64,000 nt of DNA from an uncultured Alphaproteobacteria bacterium (GTDB taxonomy: Bacteria; Pseudomonadota; Alphaproteobacteria; Rhizobiales; Rhodomicrobiaceae): the NCBI GenBank assembly GCA_963842775.1, contig CAWJHQ010000013.1, positions 162,896-226,895 of the forward strand, written 5' to 3'. Positions 27,631 through 61,050 of this stretch are shown in pieces (the first letter of the stretch is position 1; each line of letters begins with the position of its first letter). The translations under genes and the position numbers were made by a program. The notes beneath the pieces are model-generated. The model had not been told where the DNA came from. It did not search any database and was given only the letters and a program-made list of their open reading frames with translations.

Positions 27631-27730
27631 GCGCATCCGTCCAAACGGAGGCGGCACGCGGAAATTTGATAGATCGATGCAAAACAACAACGAGAGCGCT
27701 GACATGCGAACGGAGCGGACGGGTCAGCGC
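27631..27730 (+). repeat. Copy A of a ~100-nt two-hairpin intergenic element (5' hairpin GCATCCGTCCAAACGGAGG...GATCGATGC, 3' hairpin GCTGAC-ATGCGAACGGAGCGGACGG-GTCAGC)
   Basis: Shares 60-85% identity with copies at 28746-28850, 48706-48778 and 60947-61050, and reverse at 55581-55629. The second stem differs between copies while staying complementary, and the loop core TGAACGAnGTGA is conserved. Confidence 0.6.
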
Positions 27731-27902
27731 ACCAGGGCCAGGCCCCCACTTCTAGCGCTCGCCATTTCCGCGCTTCAACGGCTTTGCCGTCCTATCCAAC
27801 ATGAACTATCTCTATGTGGAGAAATGTGGGCTATGTGCCAGTGCGGGCTTGCGGATCGGAGCCTGACGGGCGCACGCGCCCGAAATGCTTGAGGTGAGTG
27901 AG

Positions 27903-28205
27903 ATGATGGCGCCGCTCCCCCGTATCGAAATCGAATATTGCCGCCAATGCCGCTGGCTGCTCCGCGCCGGCTGGATGGCGCAGGAGTTGCTCACCACCTT
28001 CGAGGACGAACTCGGCGGCGTCACGCTGGTGCCCGGAATCGGCGGCGTGTTCGAGGTGCGCGCCGATGGCGACATCATCTGGTCGCGCAAAAGCGAAGGG
28101 CGCTTTCCCGAGCTGAAGGAGATCAAGCAGCGGCTGCGCGACCGCATCGCGCCCGGCCGCGATCTCGGGCATTCGGACCGCAAAGCGGACGCCCCGCAGG
28201 ACTGA
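27903..28205 (+). CDS. SelT/SelW/Rdx family redox protein (CxxC form)
   Basis: PRIEIEYCRQCRWLLRAGWMAQELLTTF matches the Rdx-fold N-terminal CxxC motif. There is no in-frame TGA. Confidence 0.7.
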   Translation: MMAPLPRIEIEYCRQCRWLLRAGWMAQELLTTFEDELGGVTLVPGIGGVFEVRADGDIIWSRKSEGRFPELKEIKQRLRDRIAPGRDLGHSDRKADAPQD

Positions 28206-28267
28206 TCGCCTTTACGCCCGCTGGCATTCCGCCAGATCCGCCTTTATGATCGCCCCCGCGTTAGGCC

Positions 28268-28332
28268 GCCATGTGTCCGGGCTCGCCGAGACCCGGCTGG
28301 CGCGCGCCGCTTTGCGGTGGCGTGTTCCGCGG
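28268..28332 (+). repeat. R1 repeat, copy 1 (65 nt, contains the CCGGG-CTCGCCGAGA-CCCGG hairpin), 5' flank of the tRNA-like cassette
   Basis: ~90% identical to 28881-28945. Confidence 0.7.
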
Positions 28333-28348
28333 TTTGTCGCGCCAAACC

Positions 28349-28417
28349 GAGGTTGCTGCTCTGGGCGGGTCTCCGGGGAACCGGAGATCAGGGGTTCGAG
28401 GCCCTTCAACTTCACCA
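28349..28417 (+). ncRNA. tRNA-like element with an alanine/tmRNA-type acceptor stem (G3:U70), T-arm and encoded ACCA, but with the anticodon arm replaced by a 7-bp stem capped by a GGAA tetraloop
   Basis: GAGGTTG-ctgctctgggcggg-TCTCCGG-GGAA-CCGGAGA-tc-AGGGG-TTCGAGG-CCCTT-CAACTTC-A-CCA. The acceptor stem pairs perfectly apart from the single G3:T70 wobble. Confidence 0.45.
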
Positions 28418-28480
28418 CGCTCGATGGTTGAGCATTGGACTGTTAATCCAACGGATTGGGTTCGATTCCCAAATCAAGAA
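28418..28480 (+). ncRNA. tRNA-Asn(GTT)-like fragment: D-arm, anticodon arm and T-arm are intact, but there is no complementary acceptor stem. It follows the ACCA of the preceding module directly.
   Basis: GCTC-GATGGTT-GAGC, TTGGA-CTGTTAA-TCCAA, TTGGG-TTCGATT-CCCAA. Confidence 0.4.
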
Positions 28481-28488
28481 AAGCATAC

Positions 28489-28722
28489 GGAAGCCGGCGG
28501 CTTCCCCGCCTTGCCCGAGGCTTCGGCCGAAGGCGAGGCAGCGCAGAGGCGCTTTGTGCGGGGGCGGATACCGCCTGGCCGCAAAGCCTCCGGCCCAGGT
28601 GCCGGCGCGGTGGACTGCCTTCGGGTGGAAAACCGTGACCGCAGCCTGACGCGGGTGGCGGCGCGGCCGGGCTCAAGCCCTCGCCCGCGATCCTCATGCG
28701 TGGGACGCCGCCGGTGACCTTG
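28489..28722 (+). repeat. R2 repeat, copy 1 (~233 nt, GC-rich, with several UUCG-type hairpins)
   Basis: ~90% identical to 29124-29356. Contains the hairpins GAAGCC-GGC-GGCTTC and GGC-TTCG-GCC. Confidence 0.7.
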
Positions 28723-28745
28723 ATCCGCCGCCACCGCTCAATCCG

Positions 28746-28850
28746 TGCATCGATCCAAACGGAGGCGACAAGCCGGAGTTTGGTAAAATTGATGCACAAA
28801 AAAAAAGCTAGGGCGCGGACATGTGAACGACGTGAATGTGTCAGTGCCCG
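28746..28850 (+). repeat. Copy B of the two-hairpin element (most complete copy: GCATCGATCCAAACGGAGGCGACAAGCCGGAGTTTGGTAAAATTGATGCAC ... GGACATGTGAACGACGTGAATGTGTC)
   Basis: See copy A. It sits between the two tandem cassette units. Confidence 0.6.
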
Positions 28851-28880
28851 AAATCGCCTATGATGGCGGCGCTGTAAGAC

Positions 28881-28945
28881 GCCATGTGTCCGGGCTCGCC
28901 GAGACCCGGCTGGCGCGCGCTGCGTTGCAGTGGCGTGTTCCGCGG
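28881..28945 (+). repeat. R1 repeat, copy 2
   Basis: See 28268-28332. Confidence 0.7.
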
Positions 28946-28955
28946 CTTGTAGCTC

Positions 28956-29027
28956 GACGCTGTAGCTCAGAGGGAGAGCGCCTGGGAGACCAGGAGGTCG
29001 GGGGTTCAATTCCCTTCAGCGACACCA
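28956..29027 (+). ncRNA. tRNA-Pro-like element with the anticodon loop replaced by a GAGA tetraloop (non-decoding tRNA mimic or pseudogene)
   Basis: GACGCTG-TA-GCTC-AGAGGGA-GAGC-G-CCTGG-GAGA-CCAGG-AGGTC-GGGGG-TTCAATT-CCCTT-CAGCGAC-A-CCA. It follows the canonical tRNA-Pro layout except for the 4-nt anticodon loop and an A2:A71 mismatch. Confidence 0.45.
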
Positions 29028-29100
29028 AACGACTAGCTCATTGGGAGAGCATCGGAACGTCAATCCGACGGTACTTGGTTCGAACTCCAAGGTCAAATGG
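29028..29100 (+). ncRNA. tRNA-Asp(GTC)-like fragment with C33 and no matching acceptor stem, directly abutting the preceding ACCA
   Basis: GCTC-ATTGGGA-GAGC, TCGGA-ACGTCAA-TCCGA, CTTGG-TTCGAAC-(T)CCAAG. Confidence 0.35.
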
Positions 29101-29123
29101 CCTGAAAAGCCAAACGAAACGCA

Positions 29124-29356
29124 GGAAGCCGGCGGCTTCCCCGCCTTGCCCAAGGCTCCGGCCGAAGGCGAGGCAAGCGCTGAGGCGCTTTGTGCGAGGG
29201 CGGATACCGCCCGGCCGCAAAGCCTCTCGCCCAGGTGCCGGCGCGGTGGACTGCCTTCGGGCGGAAAGCCGTCGCCGCAGCCTGACGCGGATGGCGGCGT
29301 GGCCGGGCTCAAGCCCTCGCCCGCGATCCTCATGCGTGGACGCCGCCGGTGACCTT
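29124..29356 (+). repeat. R2 repeat, copy 2
   Basis: See 28489-28722. Confidence 0.7.
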
Positions 29357-29459
29357 ACTCTGCCCGAATCGCCCGTCCGCCGACGTCACATGGGGCAGCC
29401 GGAATGGGCGCCCGGACCAATCCCGAACGCCCTTCTCCTTTCGCGTGAAGTCGCACCGA

Positions 29460-29885
29460 TCACGTGCTCGGTGCGCCCGGCGTGCGCCGCCAGGCATTCA
29501 TCCACAGGATCTCCCACACATAGCCGTCCGGGTCCTCGATGTGGCGGTTATACATGAAGCCAAGGTCCTGTCGCCGGGTTGGGATCGGCGGTGCCGCCTG
29601 CCGCGACCGCGAGGGTCAGCGTCGCGTCGACCGCGTCGCGGTTGTCCACGCTGAGTGCGATCAGTGCCTGGCTTTCGCGCCGCGCGTCGCCGATCGGGCG
29701 TTTGGTGAAATTGCTGATAGTGGTCATGGGTGAGCAGCATGACCCCGAATCGCGTCCGAAAACATCAGCGAGGTGGCGCCTTCGCCCGAAAACTGTATGT
29801 TCACCTCGCCGCCGAGCGCCACGTAAAACGCGGTCGAAGCGGCGAGATCGCGCACCGGCAGGTTCACGAAAATCATCTTAGGCAT
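29460..29885 (-). CDS. VOC/glyoxalase-like small protein, readable only by joining three frames (apparent indels at ~29725, ~29690 and ~29560)
   Basis: MPKMIFVNLPVRDLAASTAFYVALGGEVNIQFSGEGATSLMFSDAIR | LLTHDHYQQF | TKRPIGDARRESQALIALSVDNRDAVDATLTLAVAAGG... | GFMYNRHIEDPDGYVWEILWMNA. A strong AAGGAGG RBS is present. Confidence 0.6.
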
Positions 29886-30388
29886 CACTTCCTCCTTCTC
29901 AAGAAGCTGATCGCCGGGCTCTAGCGCCGATCGATCGGCCAGCGCACGCCTGCGACGGTGAGCATCCTTCTTCTCGGGCAGCATCGACACTCTCAGGCTG
30001 GGCTGGATTCCTCTGCTCACGCGTCGGTTCCCACGTCCGCGGCAGGCCGTTGGCAGGCCATACTGATCGGCGCTGAGAGATGTTCAAGATCATCTTTTAT
30101 CGCCTGACTGCCGTTTGTGTGACTATGGCGGCGAAGCCGCGCCCATCCGAAAAGCTGGAACACATCGCGCTCAGCCTGCTTGACAGCAGCCCTCCGGCTG
30201 CACCAAGAATGCCGCCATGACGGTCTCATCTCCCATCGCAGCGACGCTGAAAAAATGGCCCCAACAGGGGACCGTGGATCCGCGCGCGGAGTAAAGACGT
30301 CACGCATCAGGATCATTCGAGGCCCCGCCGGTTCGGTCGGGGTCTTTTTGTTTGTCCCGTCGCCGGCATCACGAGGAGACGGACCGAC

Positions 30389-31285
30389 ATGCAGAGCATT
30401 CATGCAATTCCACGCGGCCTATGGCTGCCGCTCGTTACGCCGTTCCGGGACGGCAAGCTGGACGAAGCATCCACGCGGCGCCTTGTCAGGCATTACACGG
30501 CCGAGCCGGTCGACGGCCTGATCCTCGCGGCGACCTCGGGGGAGGGCCTCACCTTGGACGAGGCGGAAGTCCAATGTCTCGTGGAGCTGGTGGCGGCTGA
30601 ACGCGGCACGCGGATGCCGGCCTATCTCGGCATGTCCGGCAGCGATACGCGCAAGAGCGTGAAAGCGCTGGAGCGCACGGCATCCTGGCCCATCGACGGC
30701 TATCTGATCGTCTGCCCCTATTACAGCCGGCCGTCGCAACTGGGCCTGTTCGAGCATTACCGCGCGCTCGCCGACAGCACGGCCAAGCCCATCCTCATCT
30801 ACAACATACCCGCTCGAACCGGCGTCAATCTCGGCAACGAAACCATGCTGCGGCTGGCGGAGCATCCCAATATCGTCGGGGTCAAGGATTGTTCGCTGGA
30901 TGCCGCGCAGTCCTTCGACCTGATCCGCAGCCGTCCCGCCGGATTCGCGGTGCTGACAGGAGAAGATACGCTGTTCTACCGCGCGCTGACGGAAGGGGCC
31001 GATGGGGGAATTCTTGTCTCGGCGCATATCGAGACGCACGCCTTCGCTTCGATCGGGAACAAGCTGCGGGCGGGCGACCAGCCCGGCGCGCTCGCCGGCT
31101 GGCAGAGGCTCGCCGATTTGCCGCGCCTGCTCTTCGCCGAGCCAAACCCCGCACCCGTCAAATATTGGCTGTGGCGGCTGGGGCTCATCGATAGCGCCGA
31201 GCTGCGTTTGCCGATGACGCCGGTGAGCGAAGGGCTCGCCGCGCTGATCGATCGGGAAATCGCGCTGAAGCGCCGGGCGGATTGA
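30389..31285 (+). CDS. Dihydrodipicolinate synthase/N-acetylneuraminate lyase family (DapA-like) class I aldolase
   Basis: LPLVTPFRDGKLDE...GLILAATSGEGLTLDEAE...VGVKDCS (Schiff-base Lys context) ... Confidence 0.75.
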   Translation: MQSIHAIPRGLWLPLVTPFRDGKLDEASTRRLVRHYTAEPVDGLILAATSGEGLTLDEAEVQCLVELVAAERGTRMPAYLGMSGSDTRKSVKALERTASWPIDGYLIVCPYYSRPSQLGLFEHYRALADSTAKPILIYNIPARTGVNLGNETMLRLAEHPNIVGVKDCSLDAAQSFDLIRSRPAGFAVLTGEDTLFYRALTEGADGGILVSAHIETHAFASIGNKLRAGDQPGALAGWQRLADLPRLLFAEPNPAPVKYWLWRLGLIDSAELRLPMTPVSEGLAALIDREIALKRRAD

Positions 31286-31397
31286 CATGAGCCGCGAGGC
31301 GACGCGGAGCGCTGGCCGCCGTCTCGCGCGCTTTCATCTTCAGTACATCACGGTTTTGCGTTAGTGATGCCCATTCAGGGCGTTACGGGAGGCTGCC

Positions 31398-32603: not shown

Positions 32604-32656
32604 ATTGATCGGCAAGGCCCGGCGGCATTAAGCTTTTGGGAAAGGCTCGCTGCGCC

Positions 32657-32725
32657 GAAGCATCATTGCGAAAAGTGGTCTTCCCGGTTTTCGCGAAGAA
32701 TGATGCGCAAACAAGGAAGCCAGCT
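32657..32725 (+). repeat. R4 hairpin element, copy 1 (GCATCATTGCGAAAAGTGGTCTTCCCGGTTTTCGCGAAGAATGATGCGCAAACAAGG), in the 5' UTR of the BKACE gene
   Basis: Near-identical copy at 43967-44030. The stem is 15 bp with one bulge, and an AAGGAAG RBS-like motif lies downstream. Confidence 0.6.
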
Positions 32726-32728
32726 GTC

Positions 32729-33472
32729 ATGATCGTCCAGGCCTGCCTCAACGGCGCTCGCGCGCCCGGATTTCATCCCCGCCTGCCGGTCACGGCCGAG
32801 GCGATCGCGGGCGATGCGGCCGAAGCCGTCGCGGCGGGCGCGGCGGAGCTGCACATCCATGTGAGAGGGCCGGCGGGCGGGGAAAGCCTTGAGCCCGATG
32901 CGGTCGATGCGACGCTTGCCGCGGTGCGCCGGCGCCTGCCCGGCACGTTGATCGGCATCAGCACCGGCGAATGGATCGAGAAGGATGATGATCGGCGCCT
33001 CGGCCTGATTTCGCGATGGCGCGAGCTGCCGGACTACGCATCGGTCAATCTCGGCGAGACGGGTGCGCCCGCTGTCATCGAAGCGCTCCACCGGCGCGGC
33101 GTTGGCATCGAGGCCGGTCTGGCTGTTGCCGCCGATGCAGAGCGCCTCATCGGAGCCGGACTGGGCGGGCTGTCTTTGCGCGTGCTCGTCGAAATCGGGC
33201 AACAATCGCTCGGCGAGGCGATGGTGGAAGCCGATGCGGTCCTCGCAGTGCTGGCGCGTGCAGGTTTGCGCAAGCCTGTCCTCCTCCACGGCTCGGACGC
33301 CACGGTCTGGCCGTTCGTCGAACGCGCCGCCCGCGAGGGGTTTTCGACCCGCGTCGGGCTCGAGGATGGCAACGCGCTTCCCGGCGGCGAGATCGCTCCG
33401 GACAATGCGGCATTGGTCGCCGGTGCGGTGGAAATCATGCGTAATGGGGCGATGGTCAGACGAGCGAAATGA
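32729..33472 (+). CDS. 3-keto-5-aminohexanoate cleavage enzyme family (BKACE/DUF849)
   Basis: MIVQACLNGAR...AAELHIHVRGPAGGESLEPDAVDATLAAVRRRLPGTLIGISTGEW matches the BKACE TIM-barrel family. Confidence 0.75.
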   Translation: MIVQACLNGARAPGFHPRLPVTAEAIAGDAAEAVAAGAAELHIHVRGPAGGESLEPDAVDATLAAVRRRLPGTLIGISTGEWIEKDDDRRLGLISRWRELPDYASVNLGETGAPAVIEALHRRGVGIEAGLAVAADAERLIGAGLGGLSLRVLVEIGQQSLGEAMVEADAVLAVLARAGLRKPVLLHGSDATVWPFVERAAREGFSTRVGLEDGNALPGGEIAPDNAALVAGAVEIMRNGAMVRRAK

Positions 33473-35433: not shown

Positions 35434-35776
35434 GAGCGCCTTATAGCAAGGCCTGCGTAAATTTAGAGCCTCAATCTTCGGCGGATGGTGAGGAATTGCG
35501 CCGCAGGCCGCGACCCTTGACTCTCGGTCGTCGCCCCGGCCATCGAGCCGGGGCCCAATAATCTAACGTCATGTCATAACATTTTCGGGGGAACTCCATT
35601 GGACCCCGGCTCGCCTGGCGGCGTCCGGGGCGACACCAAGTGGAAGCTCACTGATATCGAAGTCCGGTTTATGCGCTAGAGCGCCGGATGCTCCGCTGAA
35701 CGCGGAGCTGCGCTCTAGGTCTTTGTTTATGCATCGGATTTGTCCGAAAAGTGCGTACACTTTTCGGTCCGATGCA

Positions 35777-36529
35777 CTAAATCCGCCAGCCCGAATGCAG
35801 CGCCGCGATGCCGCCGCTCAGATTGCGGTATTGCACGCGCTCGAACCCGGCTTTGGCCGTCATGGCGGCGAAGGCCTCCTGGTCGGGGAAGCGGCGGATG
35901 CTTTCGACGAGATATCGATAGGAGGGGCCGTCCCCGGCGACCAATTCGCCGAGCCTCGGAATGACCTTGAAGGAATAGGCCTCATAGACCTTGTCGAGCA
36001 TCGGCGTGCGGACGTCGGAGAATTCCAGGCAGAGGAACCGGCCGCCGCGTTTCAGCACGCGAAACGCCTCGGCCAGCGCCGCCTCGATCTGGGTGACATT
36101 CCTGATGCCGAAGGCGATGGTGTAGGCGTCGAAGCTCTTGTCGGGGAAGGGCAGGGTTTCGGCATTGCCCTGCACGAAGCGCAGCCTTTCGCCGAAGCGC
36201 TTGGCCAGCTTGTCGCGGCCGGCCTTCAGCATTTCGGCGCTGATGTCGCAAATGGTGGCGTTCGATTGCGGGCTGGCTGCATCAAGGAAGCGGCGCGCAA
36301 TGTCGCCGGTGCCGCCGGCCACGTCGAGCAGCGCCAGCGGTTCGCGTTTCGAGGGCGCCAGCCAGTTGATGAGATCGGCCTTCCACAGCCGGTGCATGCC
36401 GCCCGACATCAGGTCGTTCATCAGATCGTAGCGGCCCGCCACGCGCGAAAACACATTGTTGACGAGGTTCTGCCGGTCTTCCGCGTCGACATTGCGGAAA
36501 CCGAAGCTGGTTTGTGACGCCTTTTCCAT
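35777..36529 (-). CDS. ubiE: Demethylmenaquinone/ubiquinone C-methyltransferase UbiE
   Basis: [40 protein letters not shown]...[12 protein letters not shown]; start at cat 36527-36529. Confidence 0.9.
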
Positions 36530-38872: not shown

Positions 38873-39299
38873 AGCAGCGCTCTGGAGCGGCGACGGCTGG
38901 CGCGGGCTATGCTGAGGAGCGTGTACGATCGCGGTCCCTGTGGGCGCGGTCGCTCAGCGCGTTTATTTCCGCGGCGACCGATACCGTCATCTGGCTGTCG
39001 ACCTGGGGCAATTCCACCAGAATGGCGCGGGACTTTGCCGCTGCGAGAGCGGCGAAATAACACTATCGCGACCGCTGCCATAGAAGCTGTGCTCACCAAG
39101 CATCCGCCGAATTTGAAACGCTGTGCGAGGGCCGTTCACCGAAAAGCGATCCGTTCAGGCGGGCTTTTTGCTGGTTGCACGACGGAAACCTGCTTAGCTT
39201 GCTTCATTGCGCATCATTTTTCGCGAAACCGGGATGCCTTCCCTTCCGCAATGATGCCTAGCCTTCATGACCTGCCGTCCGTTCCAAGAGGAGAAATTG

Positions 39300-40187: not shown

Positions 40188-40429
40188 TCCCGCCTAAGCA
40201 GACATGCCTTGGTTGCCCAACGAATGTCTGCTTAGATTCGTATGTTTTCGCAGAGTTTTTTCCCAAAACCGGGAAGGCCAGCCCCGCTTTCGTGGGGCCA
40301 TGCTTTTGGGAACTCTGCTTAGTGCCGCCGTTGACAATAACCGATCGGCTCGGCTATCGCGCGCCGATCGGTGGACGCCAAACGGGGCCATGACTGCCCT
40401 CCCGACCTGTCAATGGAGCAAATGACGCG

Positions 40430-43916: not shown

Positions 43917-43966
43917 GATGCGCACAGAACTGAATGGTAGGAAATCCGGAGCGGAGCAGACCTGCG

Positions 43967-44030
43967 AGGCATCATTGCGAAAAGTGGCCTTCCGATTTTC
44001 GTAAATAATGATGCGCAGACAAAGACCTTG
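43967..44030 (+). repeat. R4 hairpin element, copy 2 (between the epimerase start and rpsT)
   Basis: GCATCATTGCGAAAAGTGGCCTTCCGATTTTCGTAAATAATGATGCGCAGACAAAG; see copy 1. Confidence 0.6.
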
Positions 44031-44223
44031 AGCATGTCCGTTGTTGGGCAACCAACAAAAACTTGCTGAGGGCGCTCCCTGATTGACGTCTTAAGTGACC
44101 GGCGCTATACGTGCAACCACGTTTCCAATCTCCAGCCGACGGGCCCAGGGCCTTTACCCAAGCGTGTTCTTGCGGCCGGCACGGGACGGGCTGACGAGGA
44201 ACTTTTCAAAATTCAGGACCACC

Positions 44224-47132: not shown

Positions 47133-47565
47133 TGCCGCGTTGCGGCTTTGGGTTGTAAGCTCAAAGCCATGCAGCGCCATGCCAGGTCCGGCCCTCGCGC
47201 CGGACCTGGCATATTTGGCCTTTGGCCGGCGTGTCGGCCATCAGCGGCGAACGGCGGCCCGAGCCGGCAGGCGTGTCCGAAGCTTTGGCGGGAGCGTTCA
47301 TCGATCCTGGTCCCCGCGAGGCCGCTTGCCAAACGGTTTAGGCCACGCGACAGTGCATCGCCCAATGATAGCGTTCGGCGCGGCGAATTGGCTTGACGGG
47401 GGACAAGAGCATGATCCGCAAGAGCAGGTGCTGGTTTTGCGATAAGGATCATGCTCAGCATAGAGCTGGAGCGCCGTTCTGATTCCATTCGAACGGAATG
47501 GGCTCAGGGTGCTGGCAAAGCCATTCAACGGTGCCGCGGAATCGCTGCGGCAAGGGGATGAGTCC

Positions 47566-48684: not shown

Positions 48685-48705
48685 GGCCGTCGGTATCCGC
48701 CTGGT

Positions 48706-48778
48706 GCATCGATCCAAATGAGGCGACAGGCCGGAGCTGGGAAGAGCCGGGCGCTGGATGCATTGGTGCGCTAGTGCC
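48706..48778 (+). repeat. Copy C (first hairpin only) of the two-hairpin element, ~40 nt upstream of recF
   Basis: TGCATCGATCCAAATGAGGCGACAGGCCGGAGCTGGGAAGAGCC...TGGATGCATTGG. Confidence 0.5.
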
Positions 48779-48817: not shown

Positions 48818-49982
48818 TTGGCGGCATTGAGTTCATATGGCCTTCCGGCTGAGAGCGATCGGGGGAGCGGCATCCAACTCTGGCTTGCCCGGCTGAACCT
48901 CGCCAACTTCCGCAATTATACGCAAGCCACACTGCATCTGGAGGCACGTTCCGTCGTGCTGACCGGGCATAATGGCTCCGGCAAGACGAATATTCTCGAA
49001 GCGATCTCCATGCTGGCGCCCGGCCGCGGCCTTCGCGGCGCTCCTTTCACCGATCTGGCGCGGCTAAAAGGCGATGGCGGCTGGGCCGTCTCGGCGCGGC
49101 TCTGGCGCGACGGCGCGGAGATTGCGTTGGGCACCGGCCAGCAAGTCGGCGCGGGCGGCGCATCGTCGGGGCGAATCGTCAAGATCGACGGCGAACAGAC
49201 CGGCGGGTCCGGCGCCCTTGGCGAGTATTTGCAGGTTCTGTGGCTCATTCCGGCCATGGACGGCATGTTTACCGGCGCGGCATCCGAACGCCGCCGCTTT
49301 CTCGACCGGATGGTCGCGACGTTCGACGGCGCGCATCGCACGCGTCTCAACGCATTCGACCGCGCCATGCGCCAGCGCAACCGGCTGCTGGAAATCGGCG
49401 AGCGCTCCGAGCGCTTTTTCGCCGCGATCGAAAGCCAGATGGCGGAAACCGGCACCGCGATCGCCGCCGCGCGCATCGAGACGGTGGATCGGCTCGGCTG
49501 CGTGGCCACGGCGGCGCCCAATGCGGCAAGCGGCGCGTTTCCCCACGCTATCCTCGCCTTGGAGGGGACGCTGGAAGCGGCTTTGCGCGATCTGCCTGCG
49601 GTCGATGTCGAGGATGATTATGCACGCCAGCTCGCCGCGGGCCGCGATCGTGACCGCGCCGCCGGCCGCACCCTCACCGGCCCGCATCGCGCCGATCTCA
49701 GGGTGGCGCATGGGCCCGAAAGACATGCCTGCCGGCCTCTGCTCGACGGGCGAACAGAAGGCGCTGCTCATCGGCCTCGTTCTCGCACATGCGAAAGCGG
49801 TGAAGGAGGCGCGTGCGGGCCTTGCGCCGCTGCTGCTTTTAGACGAAATTGCAGCCCATCTGGACGAGCCGCGCCGCGCCGCCCTGTTCGAGGAAATCGA
49901 GCGGCTCGGCGCGCAGGCGTGGATGACCGGAACTGACAGCGGAAGTATTTCTGTCGCTTCAGGAAAAGGCCGAGTTTCTTAA
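48818..49982 (+). CDS. recF: DNA replication and repair protein RecF, split into 48818-~49720 and ~49740-49982 by an apparent frameshift
   Basis: LANFRNY...[17 protein letters not shown] (Walker A) ... then [19 protein letters not shown]...[11 protein letters not shown] (signature and Walker B). Confidence 0.9.
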
Positions 49983-50063: not shown

Positions 50064-52503
<2,440 letters not shown>

Positions 52504-52527: not shown

Positions 52528-53641
52528 GTGGGGATGTCTCTGTCCAGCGTGACGATGATGGTCCGGTCGTTCCAGCGGGGCGTCGATTTTGCGTGGTTCA
52601 TCTCACAGCTAGGCATCGCGGCCCTGTTGGCTCGGCTGGGATGGCGCGTTGCCGTTACATTTTGCGTCGACGCAAAAAAGAAATGCGTCGTCGCCCTGGA
52701 AACCGATAAGGCGATCATCCTAGGCGGCCGCATCCACAAGCGCCGCTCGGGAAGCGAAGATGCTTCATCCGGCCTTTGGCAGGATTCTCGTGCGTTTGCT
52801 CCGATTGTGTGACGCTCGCGGCGTCCGCCTCTATGTATGGGGCTACGCGGACAAGCAATTTTTCGGCTTCAGCTTCGCCGACTTCGCCAAGACCTCAAGG
52901 CTGGAGACGGGCCTGTTCGGTGTCGGCGCGCGCTACAATGCAAAAGAGTTTTCGTATGTTGTCGATAGCAGGGCTCCGTATTTTGACGGCCGCGCCCAAA
53001 CCGATCTGGAAAGCCTGCTTTCGGCAACCCCAACGGGCGTCTGGAAGACCAACGTTCAGGCGGCACAGTTCATCAAGACTGTAGCGGGATCGGATTTCCA
53101 GAAATATGCTGAGATCAATCGCGATCTCAACATTGCCATTGGCGAGCAGGATGTCGTTGTCGTCGGGCAATGCGAAGGTGACGCGGCCTGGATCGAGACC
53201 GACAGCATGGTCTCCGATAATGTAAATCTGATCGAGGAAGCGGCTAAGCTTTTCGGCAGCTCGGAAATTTTTTACAAGCCCCACCCGTTTAATCGAACCA
53301 ATCAAAGAGACATTGCCGCCGTCGAGGAAAGAGGCTTGGCGCGCATTGTCGCCCCTGAAATATCATTTGCCCAGATTGCTGCGAAGCGCCCGATTGTCGT
53401 GGTCAATACATCCGGCGCGGGTCTGGAAGCCGCATTGCGCGGCTGTACGGTGCACACATTCGGCACCAGCTATTATTCGCATTGGGGTTTCACGCAGGAC
53501 CGCACCGCATGCCCGAGACGTTCCAACAGGCTCACTCCCGAGGATGTGTTCTACGTCTTGGTTTTTAACTATTGCAAATATGGACAAAGAGCGCCGCTCA
53601 AGCGGCTGGACGCCGAGCAGGTGACGCAAAAATCGGCTTGA
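52528..53641 (+). CDS. Capsule polysaccharide biosynthesis protein (KpsS/KpsC-like Capsule_synth family); the N-terminal ~90 aa are in a different frame (apparent frameshift near 52780)
   Basis: ...SEIFYKPHPFNRTN...IVVVNTSGAGLEAALRGCTVHTFGTSYYSHWGFT matches the KpsS/KpsC C-terminal pattern. Confidence 0.6.
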
Positions 53642-53651
53642 TACAGAGACT

Positions 53652-53750
53652 ATTCCATTCCGATTGAATCGGACACGGGGGGCTCTATCTCTTCATTTGG
53701 CTGCATTTTCGCGACGCAAACCGGTGTCCGCTTTGCTGGAAAATGCTCTA
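53652..53750 (+). repeat. R3 intergenic element, copy 1 (palindrome TCCGATTGAATCGGA ... CTCTATCTCT ... nested hairpin GCATTTTC-GCGACGCAAACCGGTGTCCGCTTTGCTG-GAAAATGC)
   Basis: Similar copies are at 55425-55560 and 58632-58726; a possible degenerate relative is at 47465-47505. Confidence 0.6.
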
Positions 53751-54479
53751 AATACCGGCGACCTTGCGTTTAACCCGCTTGATCCGTTTGGCAGCTGATT
53801 TCTTCCACCGGGCTAACATCCCCGAAGCGCGCTTTGGCTGATACGGATCTTCGATGTGCCGTCCCCAGCCAATATGTCTGACGGCCGGATTTTCCAGCCC
53901 GGCCATTCGGAAGCCGGCTTTCTTGAAGGCGTAGCTGATATCCGGCTCGTGGCCCAACGGGGCGAATGCGCCGAATTCCTTATAATCCCTGAGGCGGCGA
54001 AGGCCGGGATTGAACGAATAGCTGAAATATTCCGGATGGAGCGCTGGGTCATATTGGAAGAAGTCCACGCCGGCGGCGCTCTCCACCGGAAGTTTTCGGA
54101 TTAAAGGATTCAATTCTTCGCGTGGACGGAGGCCGACCATGCTCACCCTATCGACATGCTGCAATAGAACCGCCGACTCGGTGATGAAGCCGCTTCGAAA
54201 AAACTCCCAATCGTCCTCGCAGTGAAAAATATAGGGCGTGGATACGGTCTGATACGCCCTGTCGATCGATGCGATCTGGCCCAGTTTTACATCGTTGACC
54301 AGAATTTCGAAATCGCCGTCAAATTCGGATGCGACAGTCTCAACGGTGGGATCGCATGAATCTTCCACGATGATGATTTTCTGGGGCCGGACGTCGAGAT
54401 TCGGGAGCAATGACGCAAGCGTCGCTCGCAGCAGGTCGAATTGGCCACAACTCGTGATCACCACCGAGTAGGCTGTCAT
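53748..54479 (-). CDS. Glycosyltransferase (GT-A fold, DxD-type)
   Basis: MTAYSVVITSCGQFDLLRATLASL...KIIIVEDSCD...; start at cat 54477-54479. Confidence 0.6.
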   Translation of the reverse strand: MTAYSVVITSCGQFDLLRATLASLLPNLDVRPQKIIIVEDSCDPTVETVASEFDGDFEILVNDVKLGQIASIDRAYQTVSTPYIFHCEDDWEFFRSGFITESAVLLQHVDRVSMVGLRPREELNPLIRKLPVESAAGVDFFQYDPALHPEYFSYSFNPGLRRLRDYKEFGAFAPLGHEPDISYAFKKAGFRMAGLENPAVRHIGWGRHIEDPYQPKRASGMLARWKKSAAKRIKRVKRKVAGI

Positions 54480-55390: not shown

Positions 55391-55424
55391 AAGCACACCG
55401 TCCGACCTGTTTCGCTCAGAGCCT

Positions 55425-55560
55425 TTTCCGTTCCGATTGACATCGGAACGGGCTCTATCTCTTTGTCTCTCTTTGTCTGGTCGCATTTTCGCGGGCGCAA
55501 ACCGCTGTCCATCCCCGCCTTCGCGGAGACAGGCTTTTGCTGGAAAATACGCTAAATATC
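55425..55560 (+). repeat. R3 intergenic element, copy 2
   Basis: GTTCCGATTGACATCGGAAC ... CTCTATCTCT ... GCATTTTCGCGGGCGCAAACCGCTGTCC...TGCTGGAAAATACGC. Confidence 0.6.
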
Positions 55561-56449
55561 AGCGCCCCAGCTCTTTGCGGTGCATCAAACTTACCAAACT
55601 CGGCTGCGTCGCCTCCGTCTTGATCGATGCTCTGGCGCGTCGTGCGGCAGGAAGCGTGACGAACACCTCGGCGTCTTCGGGCTTTTCCTGCCCCCATGTA
55701 AGCTCCAGCATTTTCGCGATGCGCGTCGTCCGCATGAATGCGTGGCAGAGCGCGAAGTAGAAGCCTTTCCAGCCCCCGAAAATATGGCGCCGGCCAAAAT
55801 AGCATTTGAGGAAGTTGAGCGGGAACTCGATGCCCAAGCGAAATTTGAGATAGGCGGCAGAACGGCGCTGCGAGTTCTGCGACCGGAAGCTGCTGAAATG
55901 ATTGTTTTTTTCGATGATATGAGAAAAAGACAGATAGGAATAATGGAAGATCGGCTGGCGAAGCTGCCTGGGCTCGATATTCCGCAAGATGACGCGATCA
56001 TGCACGGGATGTTCGCGATAGGCGCCTGCCGATCGGTGGTACAGCCTGACCTCGTTGTAATCGTTGGCCCATGGGCGCGGCTTGTCTTCCCCGGGATAGA
56101 CGGTAAGAATTCTCAGGCGGTAAGCCGCAGGGTCCGGCGCCCGTCCACCCGGGAAGAGGGCCTGGATCTCCGCTGCCAGCTCTGGTGTGACGACCTCGTC
56201 GGCATCGATATTCAGCACCCACATGTTGCGGCAGAGGCGTTCCGCAAAACCCTTTTGCGAGCCGTATCCCTTCCACTCATTGTAGCTGACCTTGGCCCCG
56301 AGCGACCTGGCCAGTTCAACGGTCCGATCGCTGCTTCCCGAATCCACCACGATAATTTCGTCCACCCAAGGTTTCAGGGCGGAGATGGTCCTCGGGAGGC
56401 GCTTCTCCTCATTCTTGACGATGATGAAAGCCGAAATTGGGATCGTCAC
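55559..56449 (-). CDS. Glycosyltransferase family 2, paralog of 54572-55390. The probable start is GTG at 56447-56449, and the C-terminus may be inflated by read-through into repeat copy E.
   Basis: VTIPISAFIIVKNEEKRLPRTISALKPWVDEIIVVDSGSSDRTVELA...VLNIDADEVV. Confidence 0.7.
   Translation of the reverse strand: MTIPISAFIIVKNEEKRLPRTISALKPWVDEIIVVDSGSSDRTVELARSLGAKVSYNEWKGYGSQKGFAERLCRNMWVLNIDADEVVTPELAAEIQALFPGGRAPDPAAYRLRILTVYPGEDKPRPWANDYNEVRLYHRSAGAYREHPVHDRVILRNIEPRQLRQPIFHYSYLSFSHIIEKNNHFSSFRSQNSQRRSAAYLKFRLGIEFPLNFLKCYFGRRHIFGGWKGFYFALCHAFMRTTRIAKMLELTWGQEKPEDAEVFVTLPAARRARASIKTEATQPSLVSLMHRKELGR
55581..55629 (-). repeat. Copy E (reverse orientation, first hairpin only) of the two-hairpin element
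   Basis: Read on the minus strand it gives GCATCGATCAAGACGGAGGCGACGCAGCCGAGTTTGGTAAGTTTGATGCAC. Confidence 0.5.
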
Positions 56450-56988: not shown

Positions 56989-57112
56989 CCACTTGGCGCG
57001 GCGCGTTGGGGCGTTTTTGCGCGGATTGGGCTCTGCGGGGCTTGATCAAGCGTGCCGCGGTCTGTATTCAGCGCAACTGAGGGCCTGTGGCTGAGCGCTG
57101 GATCGAGGACGG

Positions 57113-57862
57113 ATGATCAAATACACCAAGCGGGTGACGCGGCCTTATAAGCGCGCCGTGCAGGGCGGCTATCGTTCGATGCGGCGCTCCATCAGCGACA
57201 GATCGCCCGCCTGGCTCAGCCGTTCTCTCGAACCCGTGCTCGATTACATCGATCTGATCTTCGTCGATCACGGCATCTTCCGCTTAGCCTATGCGAACCG
57301 GCACCGGCTTTCGGCGGATGTGTGGCGGTCGAGCCAACCCTCACCTCTCGACATCCGCATCGTCGCCCGGCGCGGAGTGAAGACCGTCCTCAATCTGCGC
57401 GGCGATCGCGACTGCGGCAGCTACCGCCTGGAAGAGCAGGCCTGCCGGAAACACGGCATCCGGCTGGTGAATTTCACCGTCAGATCACGTCAGGCGCCCA
57501 CGAAGCGCACCTTCCATGAGGCCAAGGAGCTGTTCGACAGCATCGAATATCCGATGCTGCTGCATTGCAAATCCGGGGCCGACCGGGCGGGGCTGATGAG
57601 CGTGCTCTATATGATCCTGAAGGAGAATGTTCCGGTCGAGCAGGCGAAACGCCAGCTCAGTCTCCGCTTCGGCCACATCCGCCAGGCGGACACCGGCGTT
57701 CTCGATTTCGTGTTCGACAGCTATCTCGCCCATAATCGCCGCGAGCCGATCGCCTTTCTCGACTGGATCGACACGCATTATGACGAGAGGGCGATGAGCA
57801 AGAGTTTTAAGGCCAAATCGTGGGCCAATCTGATGGTCAACGGCGTTATGCGCCGGGAATAG
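57113..57862 (+). CDS. Protein-tyrosine/dual-specificity phosphatase-like protein (CX5R motif)
   Basis: ...YPMLLHCKSGADRAGLMSVLYM matches the HCxxGxxRxG P-loop. Confidence 0.6.
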   Translation: MIKYTKRVTRPYKRAVQGGYRSMRRSISDRSPAWLSRSLEPVLDYIDLIFVDHGIFRLAYANRHRLSADVWRSSQPSPLDIRIVARRGVKTVLNLRGDRDCGSYRLEEQACRKHGIRLVNFTVRSRQAPTKRTFHEAKELFDSIEYPMLLHCKSGADRAGLMSVLYMILKENVPVEQAKRQLSLRFGHIRQADTGVLDFVFDSYLAHNRREPIAFLDWIDTHYDERAMSKSFKAKSWANLMVNGVMRRE

Positions 57863-57881
57863 CCGGGGATCGGCTGCATTT

Positions 57882-58595
57882 TCAGCCGATCAGAGCCGCC
57901 CGCAGCGATGTTCCCGCGATCAGGTCGATCAGCGCCGCTCCCGGATAGAGAAACGCACTCCAGATGCCGAGGCCGGTTTGCGACCGGATGATATCGGGGA
58001 AGATCTGGAAGCGGTAATACGCCCAGGCCGCCAGGACCGGAATGAGCACGATCACCACCTGCAGGGCGGCGTGGCGCACCATGCGCGGCGCGATCTGATC
58101 GGCAAGGCGGAAGGCGAGCCCCTCCCAGCTTGACGCGCGGCCCGAGAATTTGAGCGCGTAGCGCGCGATCTGGCCGGCGGTCGAGGACCTCCCTTCCGCA
58201 TTGGTGAACGCCTCCCGGAAGCGCGTAAGGATGAGCCGGTAGAGGAAAAGCCGTGCCAGCTTGTGCGGTGTCACCCGGGTCGACAGCCAGACCGCCGCGA
58301 TCGGCAGCACGTCGATGATACCCGCGACCAGCGCCCATGTGCCGTAAAGACCGGCGGCGAGGACGATGGAGGTGACCGCAACCCTCAGCGTCTCGGCGTC
58401 ACCGATCGCCACTGCCGCCAATTCCGCCGCGCCGAAAAGCACCGCGACCACGAGCGAGGGGATCAGAATGCCCTGGACGCGCGTCTGGATGACCGCGTCG
58501 ACTTCCGCGAGGGCGAGCCGCTCCGCGACATCCTCGCCCCAGGCGAGCGCGCCCTGCAAGCCGCTGCGAAGCGCCTCGATGGACTTCAAAACCAT
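57882..58595 (-). CDS. Hypothetical multi-pass membrane protein
   Basis: Six or more hydrophobic segments; no recognisable family. Confidence 0.4.
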   Translation of the reverse strand: MVLKSIEALRSGLQGALAWGEDVAERLALAEVDAVIQTRVQGILIPSLVVAVLFGAAELAAVAIGDAETLRVAVTSIVLAAGLYGTWALVAGIIDVLPIAAVWLSTRVTPHKLARLFLYRLILTRFREAFTNAEGRSSTAGQIARYALKFSGRASSWEGLAFRLADQIAPRMVRHAALQVVIVLIPVLAAWAYYRFQIFPDIIRSQTGLGIWSAFLYPGAALIDLIAGTSLRAALIG

Positions 58596-58631
58596 GGCGC
58601 GGCCCTCCAAATCCCGTAAAGTCCTGGAGCC

Positions 58632-58726
58632 TGTTCGTTCCGATTGAACCGCAACGGGCCTTCGGCCTTTTACCCGGTCGCAGCTTTGCGACGCAAACCG
58701 GTACGCACTTTGCTGGAAAATGCTAG
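58632..58726 (+). repeat. R3 intergenic element, copy 3, ending 2 nt before the GTPase start codon
   Basis: GTTCCGATTGAACCGCAACGGG...TTTGCGACGCAAACCGGTACGCACTTTGCTGGAAAATGCTAGC. Confidence 0.6.
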
Positions 58727-58727
58727 C

Positions 58728-60458
58728 ATGACCGAAGGTTCAGGCCCAATGCGAACGGATGAAGACATCGCCGCCGCGCTCGACGATCCGGTCGATCTGC
58801 GCCCGTTGCTGCTTGCTGCGACGGATGCGGAATTGCAATCCATTCGCGACGCCCTCCCGGCGAACGGCGCCAGCCGCAATCCCGATGCGCTTTGCGTGGA
58901 AGTGGAACGGCTGATCGCCGAGCGCATTACGGCGGAGGAGGAGAAGCAGCGGGCGCCGTTATTCCGGCTTGCGGTGTGGGCGGCGCGGCGCTTGGGAGCG
59001 ACCGAAAAATTCCATAATCTCGATGAGGCCGACCGCGCGATCAACAGGCTGGCGAAGGGCGGGGGCGGCAAGTCCGCCAGCGCCGGGCCGGAATTGCGCT
59101 TTCCCGGCGGCGGCGATACGACCTTGCTGCAGATCGCGATGCATCTCGCCGAACTGCGGCAGAGGAAAAGCGGCAGGCTGCGGCGCTGGCGTCCCGTGCT
59201 CGACTGGCTTGTCGGCAAGGACAGGCCGCCGCGCGTCTCCGCTTCGGCGAAAAGGACGGCCGTGGCGCGCCGTACGGAAACGCTGCCTGGCTCGACTGCG
59301 CTCGAAGGCGACGCATTGTGGGATGCGATCCGGGGCGCCGCCGGCCGTCTCCCCCTCTCAGTCTGGGAAGAGAAATTGACCGAAGCCCGCAAGACGATTG
59401 GCCGCTTCAACATCATCGTTGCCGGACGCACCGGTGTCGGCAAGACGACGCTGATCGGCGCGATCTTCGGCGAGGAGGTCGGCAACACGCTGATGGGGCG
59501 GCCCCGGACGCGCGGGCGCATCTGGTATCCGCTGTCGCCGGGCGAGGCCGACATTCTGCGGCTCTGCGACACCGAGGGCCTTGAGATGGAGCGGTATAAG
59601 GAGACGCTCGACGGCCTGAAGCGCGAGATCGAAACCCGCAACGCTTCGGGCGACCCGTTCGACCATATTCACGTCGCCTGGCTATGTATCGACGAGCCGT
59701 CCCTGACGGTGCAGCCGGGCGAGGAAGAGCTGGTGAAGCTGCTGACGCGCGAGGGCATCCCGGTGATCGTCGTGCTGACCAAGGCCGGCATGGCGCCGGC
59801 CTTCAAGGCGAAGGTGCAGGAATTGATCCCGGACGCGCGGGCCGTGGTGCGCGTCCGCGCCCAGCCGATCGCCATGGAGGGGCAGAGCTTCCCGCAAATG
59901 GGCCTCGGCGAGCTGCTGCAGGCGACCGAGAACGCCATTCCCAACGCCGTCGAAGCCGCCTGGCATGTCGCCTCGCGCAATCTCGAAGCCATGCTGCGGC
60001 GCGCCGAAACGACGGTGCGGCGCGCGGCGGCGGCAGCGGGCGCGGCCGGCGCGACCCCGATACCGATCGCCGACGCGGCAGGTGTGTTCGGCATTCAGGT
60101 CGGGATGATCATCGCGATCAGCCTCAACATGGGCGTGAAACTGAAGCGCTCCGATCTCCAGGCCATGGCGATGACGCTGATCGGCGCGCTCGGGCTGACG
60201 GCGGGCGGACGCTTCCTTGCCGGTCAATTCGCCAAGCTCATTCCGGGGATCGGCACCATCGCCGGCTCGGCCATCACCGGCACCACGGCCGCAGCCTTGA
60301 CCTATGGCCTGGGCCGCGCCTATCTGGAATATCTGCGCGGCTTTTTCGAGCAGAATGAGCGTATGCCGGATGCCGACGAACTGGTGTCGGGTTTCCGCGT
60401 CTTCTGGCGGCGGTGGAAAAACAAGCAGGAATTGCCGCCGACAAATCAGGGTTCTTGA
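58728..60458 (+). CDS. GTPase (Era/EngB-like MMR_HSR1 G domain) with an unknown ~240-aa N-terminal domain and a C-terminal DUF697-like glycine-rich membrane-associated domain
   Basis: G1 is IIVAGRTGVGKTTLI, G3 is LCDTEGL and G4 is VVLTKAG. The C-terminus reads GVFGIQVGMIIAISLNMGV...IGALGLTAGGRFLAGQFAKLIPGIGTIAGSAITGTTAAALTYGLG. Confidence 0.65.
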   Translation: MTEGSGPMRTDEDIAAALDDPVDLRPLLLAATDAELQSIRDALPANGASRNPDALCVEVERLIAERITAEEEKQRAPLFRLAVWAARRLGATEKFHNLDEADRAINRLAKGGGGKSASAGPELRFPGGGDTTLLQIAMHLAELRQRKSGRLRRWRPVLDWLVGKDRPPRVSASAKRTAVARRTETLPGSTALEGDALWDAIRGAAGRLPLSVWEEKLTEARKTIGRFNIIVAGRTGVGKTTLIGAIFGEEVGNTLMGRPRTRGRIWYPLSPGEADILRLCDTEGLEMERYKETLDGLKREIETRNASGDPFDHIHVAWLCIDEPSLTVQPGEEELVKLLTREGIPVIVVLTKAGMAPAFKAKVQELIPDARAVVRVRAQPIAMEGQSFPQMGLGELLQATENAIPNAVEAAWHVASRNLEAMLRRAETTVRRAAAAAGAAGATPIPIADAAGVFGIQVGMIIAISLNMGVKLKRSDLQAMAMTLIGALGLTAGGRFLAGQFAKLIPGIGTIAGSAITGTTAAALTYGLGRAYLEYLRGFFEQNERMPDADELVSGFRVFWRRWKNKQELPPTNQGS

Positions 60459-60519
60459 TCATTTGACCGATTTATATAACTCTGTCGCGATGCCACGGGC
60501 AGAAAGAGAGTGCACCCCC

Positions 60520-60927
60520 ATGCCCAAAGCTATGAAAATCGGCTACGACGCCCTGATCCAGGCGGCCAGGCGGGAAATCGAGGAAGTGGATCCCGATCAA
60601 CTCATGGCCCGATTAGGGAAAGGCGATTTCATCATCGTCGATGTCCGGGATATTCGCGAGATCGAGCGGGACGGGCGCATTCCAGGCTCATTCCATTGTC
60701 CGCGCGGCATGCTCGAATTCTGGATCGATCCGGCCAGTCCCTATTTCAAGCCGATCTTCGGCGAGGCCAAGCGCTTCGTCTTTCATTGCACCCTCGATTG
60801 GCGCTCGGCGCTGGCAACGCAGACGGCGCAGAGAATGGGCATGGCCAACGTCGCGCACCTCAAGGGCGGCTTCAAGGCTTGGAAAGCGGCGGGCGGGCCT
60901 GTGGAAATGGTGACCGAAACGGCGTAA
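60520..60927 (+). CDS. Rhodanese-domain sulfurtransferase (single domain)
   Basis: ...FIIVDVRDIREIERDGRIPGSFHCPRG...RFVFHCTLDWRSA matches the active-site Cys loop. Confidence 0.75.
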   Translation: MPKAMKIGYDALIQAARREIEEVDPDQLMARLGKGDFIIVDVRDIREIERDGRIPGSFHCPRGMLEFWIDPASPYFKPIFGEAKRFVFHCTLDWRSALATQTAQRMGMANVAHLKGGFKAWKAAGGPVEMVTETA

Positions 60928-60946
60928 GGCTTGCGCGGTATCCTTA

Positions 60947-61050
60947 GGCATCGATCCAAACGGAGCTCCCAGCGGAGTTTGGTAAAATTGATGCATAGAC
61001 AAATAACTAGGACGCCGGCACGTGAACGAAGTGATGTGCCGGTACTAGGG
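60947..61050 (+). repeat. Copy D of the two-hairpin element, ending ~17 nt before the carboxyltransferase start
   Basis: GCATCGATCCAAACGGAGCTCCCAGCGGAGTTTGGTAAAATTGATGCATAGAC...GCCGGCAC-GTGAACGAAGTGAT-GTGCCGGT. Confidence 0.6.

Follow-up and report, generated by a model that had tools for sequence, protein, structure and literature searches.

A CTAG-bounded two-hairpin repeat of Rhodomicrobiaceae-like Alphaproteobacteria is probably a non-autonomous mobile intergenic element

Introduction

Intergenic repeats of ~100 nt are known from the Rhizobiales as RIMEs (Rhizobium-specific intergenic mosaic elements, reportedly described by Osteras, Stanley and Finan in 1995), Sm-repeats and the A/B/C palindromes of Sinorhizobium meliloti, and RIME1 is composed of two palindromes. 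The Brucella repeats Bru-RS1 and Bru-RS2, which are said to go back to Halling and Bricker in 1994, contain a CTAG-type site used by the insertion sequence (IS) IS711. Enterobacterial REP sequences have GTAG as the tetranucleotide at the hairpin foot, and a preference for CTAG/TA targets is a property of IS630, of IS870 from Agrobacterium vitis and of the IS5/IS427 group, to which IS711 belongs. The subject of the present study is a two-hairpin repeat occurring five times (copies A to E) in a stretch of 64,000 nt, hereafter the window, taken from contig CAWJHQ010000013.1 (positions 162,896 to 226,895) of the uncultured alphaproteobacterial assembly GCA_963842775.1. An earlier interpretation made from the letters alone, the sequence-only reading, had proposed that the repeat is either a small RNA (sRNA) or cis-regulatory RNA, or else a RIME/REP-like mosaic element, and it is the latter proposal that is borne out by dispersed copies, by presence/absence polymorphism of A and D, by decay and nesting, and by the lack of positional or gene-set coherence. 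We can conclude with good confidence that all five belong to a single family of non-coding, non-autonomous mobile repeats, of an ordinary selfish kind, which has dispersed through intergenic regions of soil alphaproteobacteria, and that they are not a dedicated gene switch.

Bru-RS1 and Bru-RS2, related palindromic repeats of 103-106 bp, are intergenic and often paired (PMC10800456), and RIME-type repeats are routinely masked in sRNA screens (PMC2573895). The present family resembles the Bru-RS repeats in comprising palindromes of similar size and in that these occur in a genus of the Hyphomicrobiales, a likeness drawn by description only. With RIMEs, Sm-repeats and the A/B/C palindromes it shares the bacterial order, the size, the intergenic location, the combination of large palindromes into mosaics and copy numbers of dozens per genome; the present copies, too, are mosaics in which large palindromic modules are combined between genes of Rhizobiales. 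To our knowledge, however, CTAG-delimited modules and the conserved linker seen here are not part of the description of RIMEs.

The family is likewise reminiscent of the REP, BIME and REPIN sequences of Escherichia coli and Pseudomonas, which are intergenic, persist for long and decay, and consist of imperfect hairpins with a conserved foot tetranucleotide (GTAG in REP, CTAG in our family), arranged in mosaics and with a strand-specific structure, but it departs from REP in that a conserved A-rich linker connects two hairpins which differ from each other and have the same orientation. [quoted passage not shown] It differs from a MITE, however, in that conservation extends far past the termini and the right CTAG lies within the stem of hairpin 2, and the top-strand G:T bias described below is not expected of a MITE recognised as double-stranded DNA. 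PATEs, which derive from IS200/IS605, carry unlike subterminal hairpins at their ends, are strand-specific, and insert on the 3' side of a particular tetranucleotide, leaving no duplication; the features of our family that may correspond to these are two different hairpins, a G:T bias of 105:20, CTAG 5' of the unit and an own 3' CTAG in the stem, and no TnpA was found in the window and 132 loci examined (~1.3 Mb). The family is accordingly filed as a new one, in kind like RIME, Sm-repeats, Bru-RS, REP/BIME and MITE and set apart from RIME and Bru-RS by their descriptions only, and it would seem to be at least a distinct sequence family, judging from a plasmid blastn search in which copy B matched A. 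vitis only.

Results and Discussion

Five copies of one unit

An 18-nt motif from the 5' part of the repeat, GCATCGATCCAAACGGAG, is found with ≤3 mismatches at five sites of the window, 27633 (+), 28747 (+), 48706 (+), 55613 (-) and 60948 (+), a count that was reached in 0/100 shuffles (shuffle mean 0.13), and the claim that one element is present five times is thus upheld. A 22-nt motif from the 3' part matches copies B and D exactly and E with 3 mismatches, and in A and C it cannot be recognised at ≤3 mismatches. The extents given in the following were set from the family consensus and from empty sites and are slightly larger than the coordinates first reported, the scores in bits are those of a covariance model (R1) built on 29 full copies, and the gene context of A, C, D and E was confirmed with Pfam.

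Copies B and D are intact two-hairpin units, in which both of the hairpins originally described form (28745-28852, z = -6.95, and 60946-61052, z = -5.43). Copy B (28742..28852, + strand, 113.8 bits) is located between two repeated tRNA-like units, precisely as had been noted; its terminal CTAGs are changed to TCCG and CGAA and its linker is A9. Copy D (60944..61048, + strand, 94.5 bits) lies between a rhodanese and a carboxyltransferase gene and differs from the canonical form in contigs of the same species by three small deletions. Copies A, C and E are decayed and fold no better than shuffles (z = -1.1, -0.9 and -2.0, respectively), and the statement that all copies share hairpin 1 therefore holds for the folds of B and D, the other three being remnants. 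Copy A (27628..27735, + strand, 38.8 bits), in the divergent intergenic region between otsB(-) and the Rdx (SelW-like) gene, is full-length and mutated, with CAAG...CCAG as its ends, a broken hairpin 1 and a preserved hairpin-2 stem, GCGCTGAC/GTCAGCGC. Copy C, between dnaN and recF (about 48701..48778, + strand), is strongly decayed with a score of 7.1 bits only, hairpin 1 being broken and hairpin 2 mostly deleted. Copy E (55556..55635, - strand, 38.6 bits) retains hairpin 1, the linker and, of hairpin 2, the 5' half, and overlaps the 3' end of a glycosyltransferase gene, which was correctly noted and belongs to GT2. The last codons and the stop of this open reading frame (ORF) come from hairpin 1 of the repeat, both in the window (55559-55640) and in the sister contig L127 (5042-5123), and the repeat has thus been read into the C-terminus of the GT2 protein for some time.

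Insertion polymorphism and decay

The most direct evidence for mobility comes from orthologous sites. Copy D is present in the same-species contigs L121-L123 (~97% identical) in its canonical form, CTAGTGCA...TGCACTAG, and is missing from the sister-species contigs L124, L126 and L127, in which both flanks are conserved (the sister rhodanese is 86-88% identical) and only 38-40 nt separate the two genes. Copy A is absent from the sister contigs L129 and L130, where the flanks are kept (GTCAC-GAGA-GCCAG as opposed to GTCAC-AAGC[...]CAGG-GCCAG in the window), and from L128 too. Copy C on the other hand is present in the sister species (L131), and since this orthologous copy is far more intact than that of the window, the insertion must be old and shared. 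Hairpin 1 of copy E is likewise found at the same site in L127, and a second element of ~155 nt, of a kind referred to here as the X type, has entered the second hairpin of E in the window lineage only, L127 having 4 nt where the window has 160. These comparisons show that the insertions of A and D are recent whereas C and E are older and common to a sister species, and they show furthermore that the element entered unrelated intergenic sites on occasions separated in time, after which the copies decay. Such presence/absence differences at orthologous sites, found for A, for D and for the X element in E, are characteristic of MITEs. Copy B is not a simple insertion, since it starts a 2.6-kb segment (28722-31330) which is absent from the sister contigs as a whole.

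The state of the window copies should be read with the assembly in mind. Relative to the same-species contigs, to which it is ~97% identical, the window has 4-11 gap openings per 4-5 kb, and because 3 of the 11 gaps against L121 fall within copy D, part of the apparent decay may be assembly noise in hairpin DNA.

Architecture and distribution of the family

The family unit is ~115 nt long and reads CTAG, hairpin 1, the A-rich linker TAAACAAAGAG, CTAG, hairpin 2, CTAG, and when the pattern matches are aligned together with their flanks it has sharp borders and the consensus CTAG-TGCATCGATCCAAACGGAGG-loop-CCGGAGTTTGGTAAAATCGATGCA-TAAACAAAGAG-CTAG-TGCGCTGACATATGAA-loop-TGAATGTGTCAGTGCA-CTAG. Both hairpins are opened by CTAG-(T/A)GC, and hairpin 1 consists of GTGCATCGAT-CCAAAC-(GGA x GGA internal loop)-GGC...GCC and has, on its 3' side, a bulge of 4 nt. 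Being short (<300 nt), non-coding and dispersed between unrelated flanks, the unit has the general properties of a MITE. A reading as a small ORF, starting at the ATG in GATGCA... ('MHKQRASALTYE...'), is ruled out by 1-nt indels in the linker between copies. An IHF site was also considered, and by eye the repeat departs from the consensus.

A single-pass scan for the strict pattern TCCAAACGGAG-N4-16-GGAGTTTGGTAAAA, with one genome per species, yielded 36 loci, mainly from ~10 metagenome-assembled genomes (MAGs) labelled Alphaproteobacteria, Hyphomicrobiaceae or Rhodomicrobiaceae, along with two other sources, a small scaffold binned as Acidihalobacter and a 5-Mb contig labelled Acidobacteriota. 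The latter (L020, 'uncultured Acidobacteriota') carries two copies, 1330-1440 and 3728-3846, ≤2.5 kb apart, which means either that the bin is mislabelled or chimeric or that the element has been transferred beyond the Alphaproteobacteria. Plasmids of A. vitis carry the unit in intergenic regions at 75-78% identity (blastn), and among 72,556 PLSDB plasmids, a set that includes Sinorhizobium replicons, blastn matches to copy B were found in A. vitis only. The family thus ranges over at least the Rhizobiaceae and the Rhodomicrobiaceae/Hyphomicrobiaceae group; in the viral contigs searched no copy was found.

The loci also reveal bursts and modularity. Eleven copies assigned to one MAG (10 on Spart_062 contigs, together with L004 on the Acidihalobacter-binned Spart_214 scaffold) have a mean identity of 94%, while their flanks are 47% identical, which is the random level. 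Two loci (L015 and L017) have module 1 alone, another (L007) has module 1 with a foreign second module, and in L029 a complete and different two-hairpin element, of the X type, is nested in the internal CTAG with a CTAG on each side. The copy at L038 was found in 7 of 7 A. vitis strains and shows no polymorphism, and in R. acidisoli the orthologous intergenic region is without the element, the divergence being too great to fix the borders. Comparison of L038 (1500-1560, A. vitis F2/5) with its orthologue L040 (A. ampelinum S4) shows that the apex of hairpin 1 in S4 is reverse-complemented relative to F2/5, GGAGGCGTTAGCCGAG as opposed to TCGGCTGAAGCCTCCG; the flipped apex of the S4 copy sits between CCAAAC and GTTTGG, and this copy is also without the 4-nt bulge. 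The difference is a flip of the hairpin loop, a DNA-level event typical of palindromes.

Fold, covariation and strand asymmetry

In the alignment of 29 copies the two-hairpin structure is paired in 93% of cells, compared to 22-40% when the partners are slid, and the covariation score was reached in 0/500 shuffles. Hairpin 2 has six of the eight doubly changed pairs and the apex of hairpin 1 the other two, and RNAalifold independently returns an exact hairpin 1 together with the core of hairpin 2. The compensatory differences in the stem of hairpin 2 that were first noticed between the window copies are real, as for instance in copy D, where pairs 82/110 and 84/108 are C-G and G-C and most other copies have U-A and A-U or G-U. 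Such covariation had been held to be the hallmark of a functional RNA structure or of a family of protein-binding palindromes, but although it is genuine, all that follows from it is that the hairpins are of importance to the element, and it is equally expected of a mobile palindromic repeat.

Stem mismatches are strongly asymmetric, with G:T in 105 cells and A:C in 20, or 76 and 17 after collapse at 92% identity; these figures count cells and not independent events, so that the size of the effect is uncertain while its direction is clear. G:T occurs in ≥5 sequences in six columns and A:C nowhere that often, and several changes run from Watson-Crick over G:T to Watson-Crick, for example where the internal CTAG/CTGG pairs with the terminal CTAG/CCAG, the right CTAG co-varying with the internal one as part of the hairpin-2 stem. 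Since a duplex palindrome would gather both kinds of mismatch equally, the top strand folds alone, either as single-stranded DNA during mobilisation or as RNA when transcribed. Non-canonical features are conserved as well, namely the GGA x GGA internal loop, the 4-nt bulge and a tandem G.A beside the loop of hairpin 2.

This asymmetry bears on the notion that the repeats are palindromic sites bound as double-stranded DNA by a protein of the nucleoid, gyrase, IHF-like or partition kind, a proposal made for the BIMEs of E. coli. The extreme conservation of hairpin 1, including palindromic ATCGAT and GTGCAC-like motifs, and the intergenic location of the copies would fit such a role, but the expected equality of G:T and A:C is contradicted by the observed 105:20, conserved asymmetric features such as a bulge on one arm and the GGA x GGA loop make for poor double-stranded palindromes, and insertion polymorphism and bursts point to mobility. 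We regard this as the least probable of the explanations considered.

Gene context and the case for a regulatory RNA

Every copy lies between genes or at the end of one, and the neighbouring genes are functionally unrelated. The 16 classifiable copies fall into 6 convergent, 6 tandem and 4 divergent intergenic regions, with the gene maps of the MAG loci resting on a simple ORF heuristic, and the enrichment upstream of a coherent gene set that a regulon would entail is not seen. Copies A, C and D do lie upstream of the starts of the SelW-like, recF and carboxyltransferase genes, as the sequence-only reading had it, the distances being 19-150 nt.

These positions, each co-oriented with the downstream gene, together with an A. 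vitis copy (L037) that ends 29 nt upstream of an SBP gene, could be taken to indicate a cis-regulatory RNA of 5' untranslated regions or a trans-acting sRNA family controlling a regulon, the fold being selected at each locus, and the compensatory changes and the top-strand tolerance of G:U would agree with this. The proposal is however largely refuted already by the empty sites, since sister species lack A and D despite conserved intergenic flanks, and copy C has decayed in place. It is also in poor agreement with the unrelated neighbours and with the copies in convergent 3' regions and within other repeats. Furthermore, a search of the whole window against Rfam 15 gave no match to any copy at gathering score and none to copy D even at E ≤ 10, and promoter and terminator scans found nothing framing the unit. 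No copy is present in 80 orthologous metagenome carboxyltransferase loci (868 kb) either, but these are ≤79% identical and too distant to act as empty sites. A dedicated regulatory RNA is therefore highly improbable, and any effects on neighbouring genes would be by-products of each insertion and not the expression of a shared regulon.

Mobilisation and opposing evidence

If the repeats are, as we believe, non-autonomous mobile elements, an enzyme encoded elsewhere would move them in trans. The substrate would be recognised as the single-stranded top strand, because the stems pass via G:T and almost never via A:C and because the tandem G.A and the bulge are conserved, and the CTAG found at either hairpin's foot would serve as target and/or cleavage site. 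Two routes can be envisaged. In the first, a CTAG-targeting DDE transposase of the IS630/IS870 kind, or of the IS5/IS427 group such as IS711, would act on the unit; its end CTAGTGCATCGATCC and the reverse complement of its 3' end, CTAGTGCACTGACAC, agree at 12/15 positions, which may however simply reflect the two hairpin feet. In the second, a single-strand enzyme of the HUH class, REP/RAYT or IS200/IS605-like, would use the left CTAG as target and the right CTAG as the element's own cleavage site. Our slight leaning is towards the single-strand route, on account of the top-strand bias, of hairpins that are unlike each other, of irregularities that are conserved and of the placement of the right CTAG in the stem of hairpin 2. 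Long-range CTAGTGC...GCACTAG pairs and a cognate IS with matching ends were not found in the ~1.3 Mb, which is a weak negative.

Several observations nonetheless weigh against mobility as the whole explanation. At the empty sites the letters are TCCG/CCCG (D) and GAGA (A) and not CTAG, and a clean target-site duplication may or may not accompany insertion. In the window and the 132 loci no match to E. coli RayT or IS200 TnpA was obtained and an all-against-all comparison of ORFs found no recurring transposase-like protein, and the 26 plasmid records matched by E. coli RayT in PLSDB (tblastn) include none from Rhizobiales, all three of these being weak negatives, so that the family also differs from REP/RAYT in lacking a RAYT homologue among the sequences examined. 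The strand bias is, as mentioned, a count of cells. Hairpin 1 is moreover nearly invariant between distant genera, including its outer stem and stretches outside the forced pattern; the strict hairpin-1 seed of the scan inflates this invariance in the sample, but the A. vitis copies, which were found by BLAST, agree with it. Such conservation exceeds the needs of a transposase-binding end and leaves room for a function at the level of the host or of RNA. Finally, 5 of the 6 copies in tandem pairs are co-oriented with transcription, or ~10 of 13 when relatives in the window are added by eye, which hints at selection at the transcript level.

The last two points lead to the possibility of a host-maintained, REP-like structural element which acts on transcripts and whose copies persist through usefulness and not through transposition alone. 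The A-rich, single-stranded linker between the two hairpins looks like an RNase E-type site on the sense strand, and in such a scheme hairpin 1 would shield the 3' end of the upstream mRNA and hairpin 2 the 5' end of the downstream one, while on the antisense strand hairpin 2 and the T-rich linker would form a weak terminator. The top-strand tolerance of G:U, the orientation in tandem pairs and the conservation of the linker and the foot of hairpin 1 across otherwise different subfamilies are in agreement with this, and the minus strand of copy B indeed reads hairpin, AGC, T9. This T9 run, 3 nt past the stem, is however found in B only, neither B nor D was called as a terminator on either strand, the orientation sample is small, and copies at old sites (C and E) decay. 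Near-identical bursts and nested insertion furthermore remain unexplained without mobility, which makes a transcript role an addition to mobility and not an alternative to it. As an explanation in its own right we find it improbable, although at single loci the processing or stability of an mRNA could plausibly be affected where a copy is co-transcribed.

Returning to the mobile repeat, a more far-reaching version may be entertained as an outside possibility: that this element, like its relatives in the window, is a substrate of an unrecognised single-strand system (HUH-type, REPIN/RAYT-like or IS200/IS605-like) of the Hyphomicrobiales which uses CTAG as its tetranucleotide for cleavage or targeting at the hairpin foot, with the invariant hairpin 1 and the linker as recognition module and hairpin 2 freely co-varying, or that the same module is an RNA processing signal co-opted by the host across genera.

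Related elements in the window

The covariance model R1 has 11 matches in the window at E ≤ 0.01, and inspection adds others, giving ~15 related elements in 64 kb, the five copies and at least 10 further relatives. The five copies are thus one subfamily within a larger group of equal architecture, whose plan is a stem of the GCAT... type that bears a bulge of 4 nt in its 3' arm, followed by a linker (C/T)AAACAAAGA(G/C), CTAG, and a second hairpin which varies freely and is closed by CTAG. A related subfamily has a member at 35671..35784 (-; 50.2 bits, E 4.5e-10), in which the foot of hairpin 1, GTGCATCGGA/TCCGATGCA, the linker TAAACAAAGAC and CTAG are as in the five copies while the inner stems differ; its own relatives are found on plasmids of Aminobacter, Rhizobium and A. 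vitis. Other members of the superfamily are located at 32651..32733 (+; 28.1 bits), with the stem GCATCATT and an A-rich linker and without a second hairpin, at 43961..44076 (+; 27.5 bits), with two hairpins, at 47400..47513 (+; 25.6 bits), directly 5' of dnaN (start 47509), at 40188..40323 (-; 24.3 bits), and at 39187..39265 (-; 20.7 bits), where the first hairpin and linker only are present, and a further significant match to the model is found at 15235-15319. The gene dnaN is thereby bracketed by two repeats, the relative at 47400-47513 upstream and copy C downstream.

The two-hairpin X-type element within hairpin 2 of copy E (55399..55555, -), which is absent from the sister contig L127, reads GCGTATTTTCCAGC...GCGAAAATGC, A-rich linker, AGCCCGTTCCGAT...GGAACGG. 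Another at 53640..53770 (-) reads TTAG-AGCATTTTCCAGC...GCGAAAATGC, linker, ATAG, hairpin 2, and is of the type nested in L029, and a third is located at 58660..58760 (-). Members of the superfamily are thus shown to insert into one another's CTAG and so to generate mosaics. CTAG itself is 9-fold under-represented in the window, where base composition predicts ~220 sites and 24 are present, and many of those left mark the points at which repeat modules end (18842/18951, 35676/35715, 28808 and 61007/61045 among others). The first of these pairs belongs to a CTAG-bounded palindromic element of ~110 nt at 18842-18954, CTAGCGCGGGATCGG...CCTGATCGCGCTCTAG, whose sequence is unrelated to the other families (6.4 bits with R1). 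Altogether the five-copy family and its relatives make up about 2-3% of the window.

Surroundings of the copies

The segment 28722-31330, viewed with 28257-28721 and 28869-29356, contains, besides copy B, the second unit of a 'tRNA-like cassette', a glyoxalase-like ORF and a gene of the DHDPS family, and no integrase was found in it. The 2.6-kb segment is absent from the sister contigs L129 and L130, in which cassette unit 1, ending ...GGTGACCTT, joins directly to window position 31331. Rfam recognises three tRNA-like stretches here (28419-28472, 28956-29024 and 29031-29095), while ARAGORN calls none. Next to copy C, recF (48818-49982) looks frameshifted, with an ORF of 372 aa as opposed to 409-412 aa in relatives, and gyrB (50070-52503) looks split into 729 aa + 99 aa as opposed to 810 aa, which suggests either indel errors of a long-read assembly or real pseudogenes. 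The window derives from a Rhodomicrobiaceae relative, and its best named homologues are from Rhodomicrobium, at 70-81% identity.

Implications

Because these repeats fold very well and covary, they will lead to false calls of structured RNA in screens for sRNAs and riboswitches, and their recognition is therefore of value for annotation, the more so since in two places they extend ORFs or directly precede start codons. The family furthermore provides a clean example of intergenic mosaic repeats that insert into one another at CTAG, and its dated insertions, of which A and D are young and C and E old, are possible lineage markers in Rhodomicrobiaceae-like MAGs. If indeed the top-strand bias reflects single-strand transposition, the family would be a sign that alphaproteobacteria have a REP/RAYT-like system not described before.

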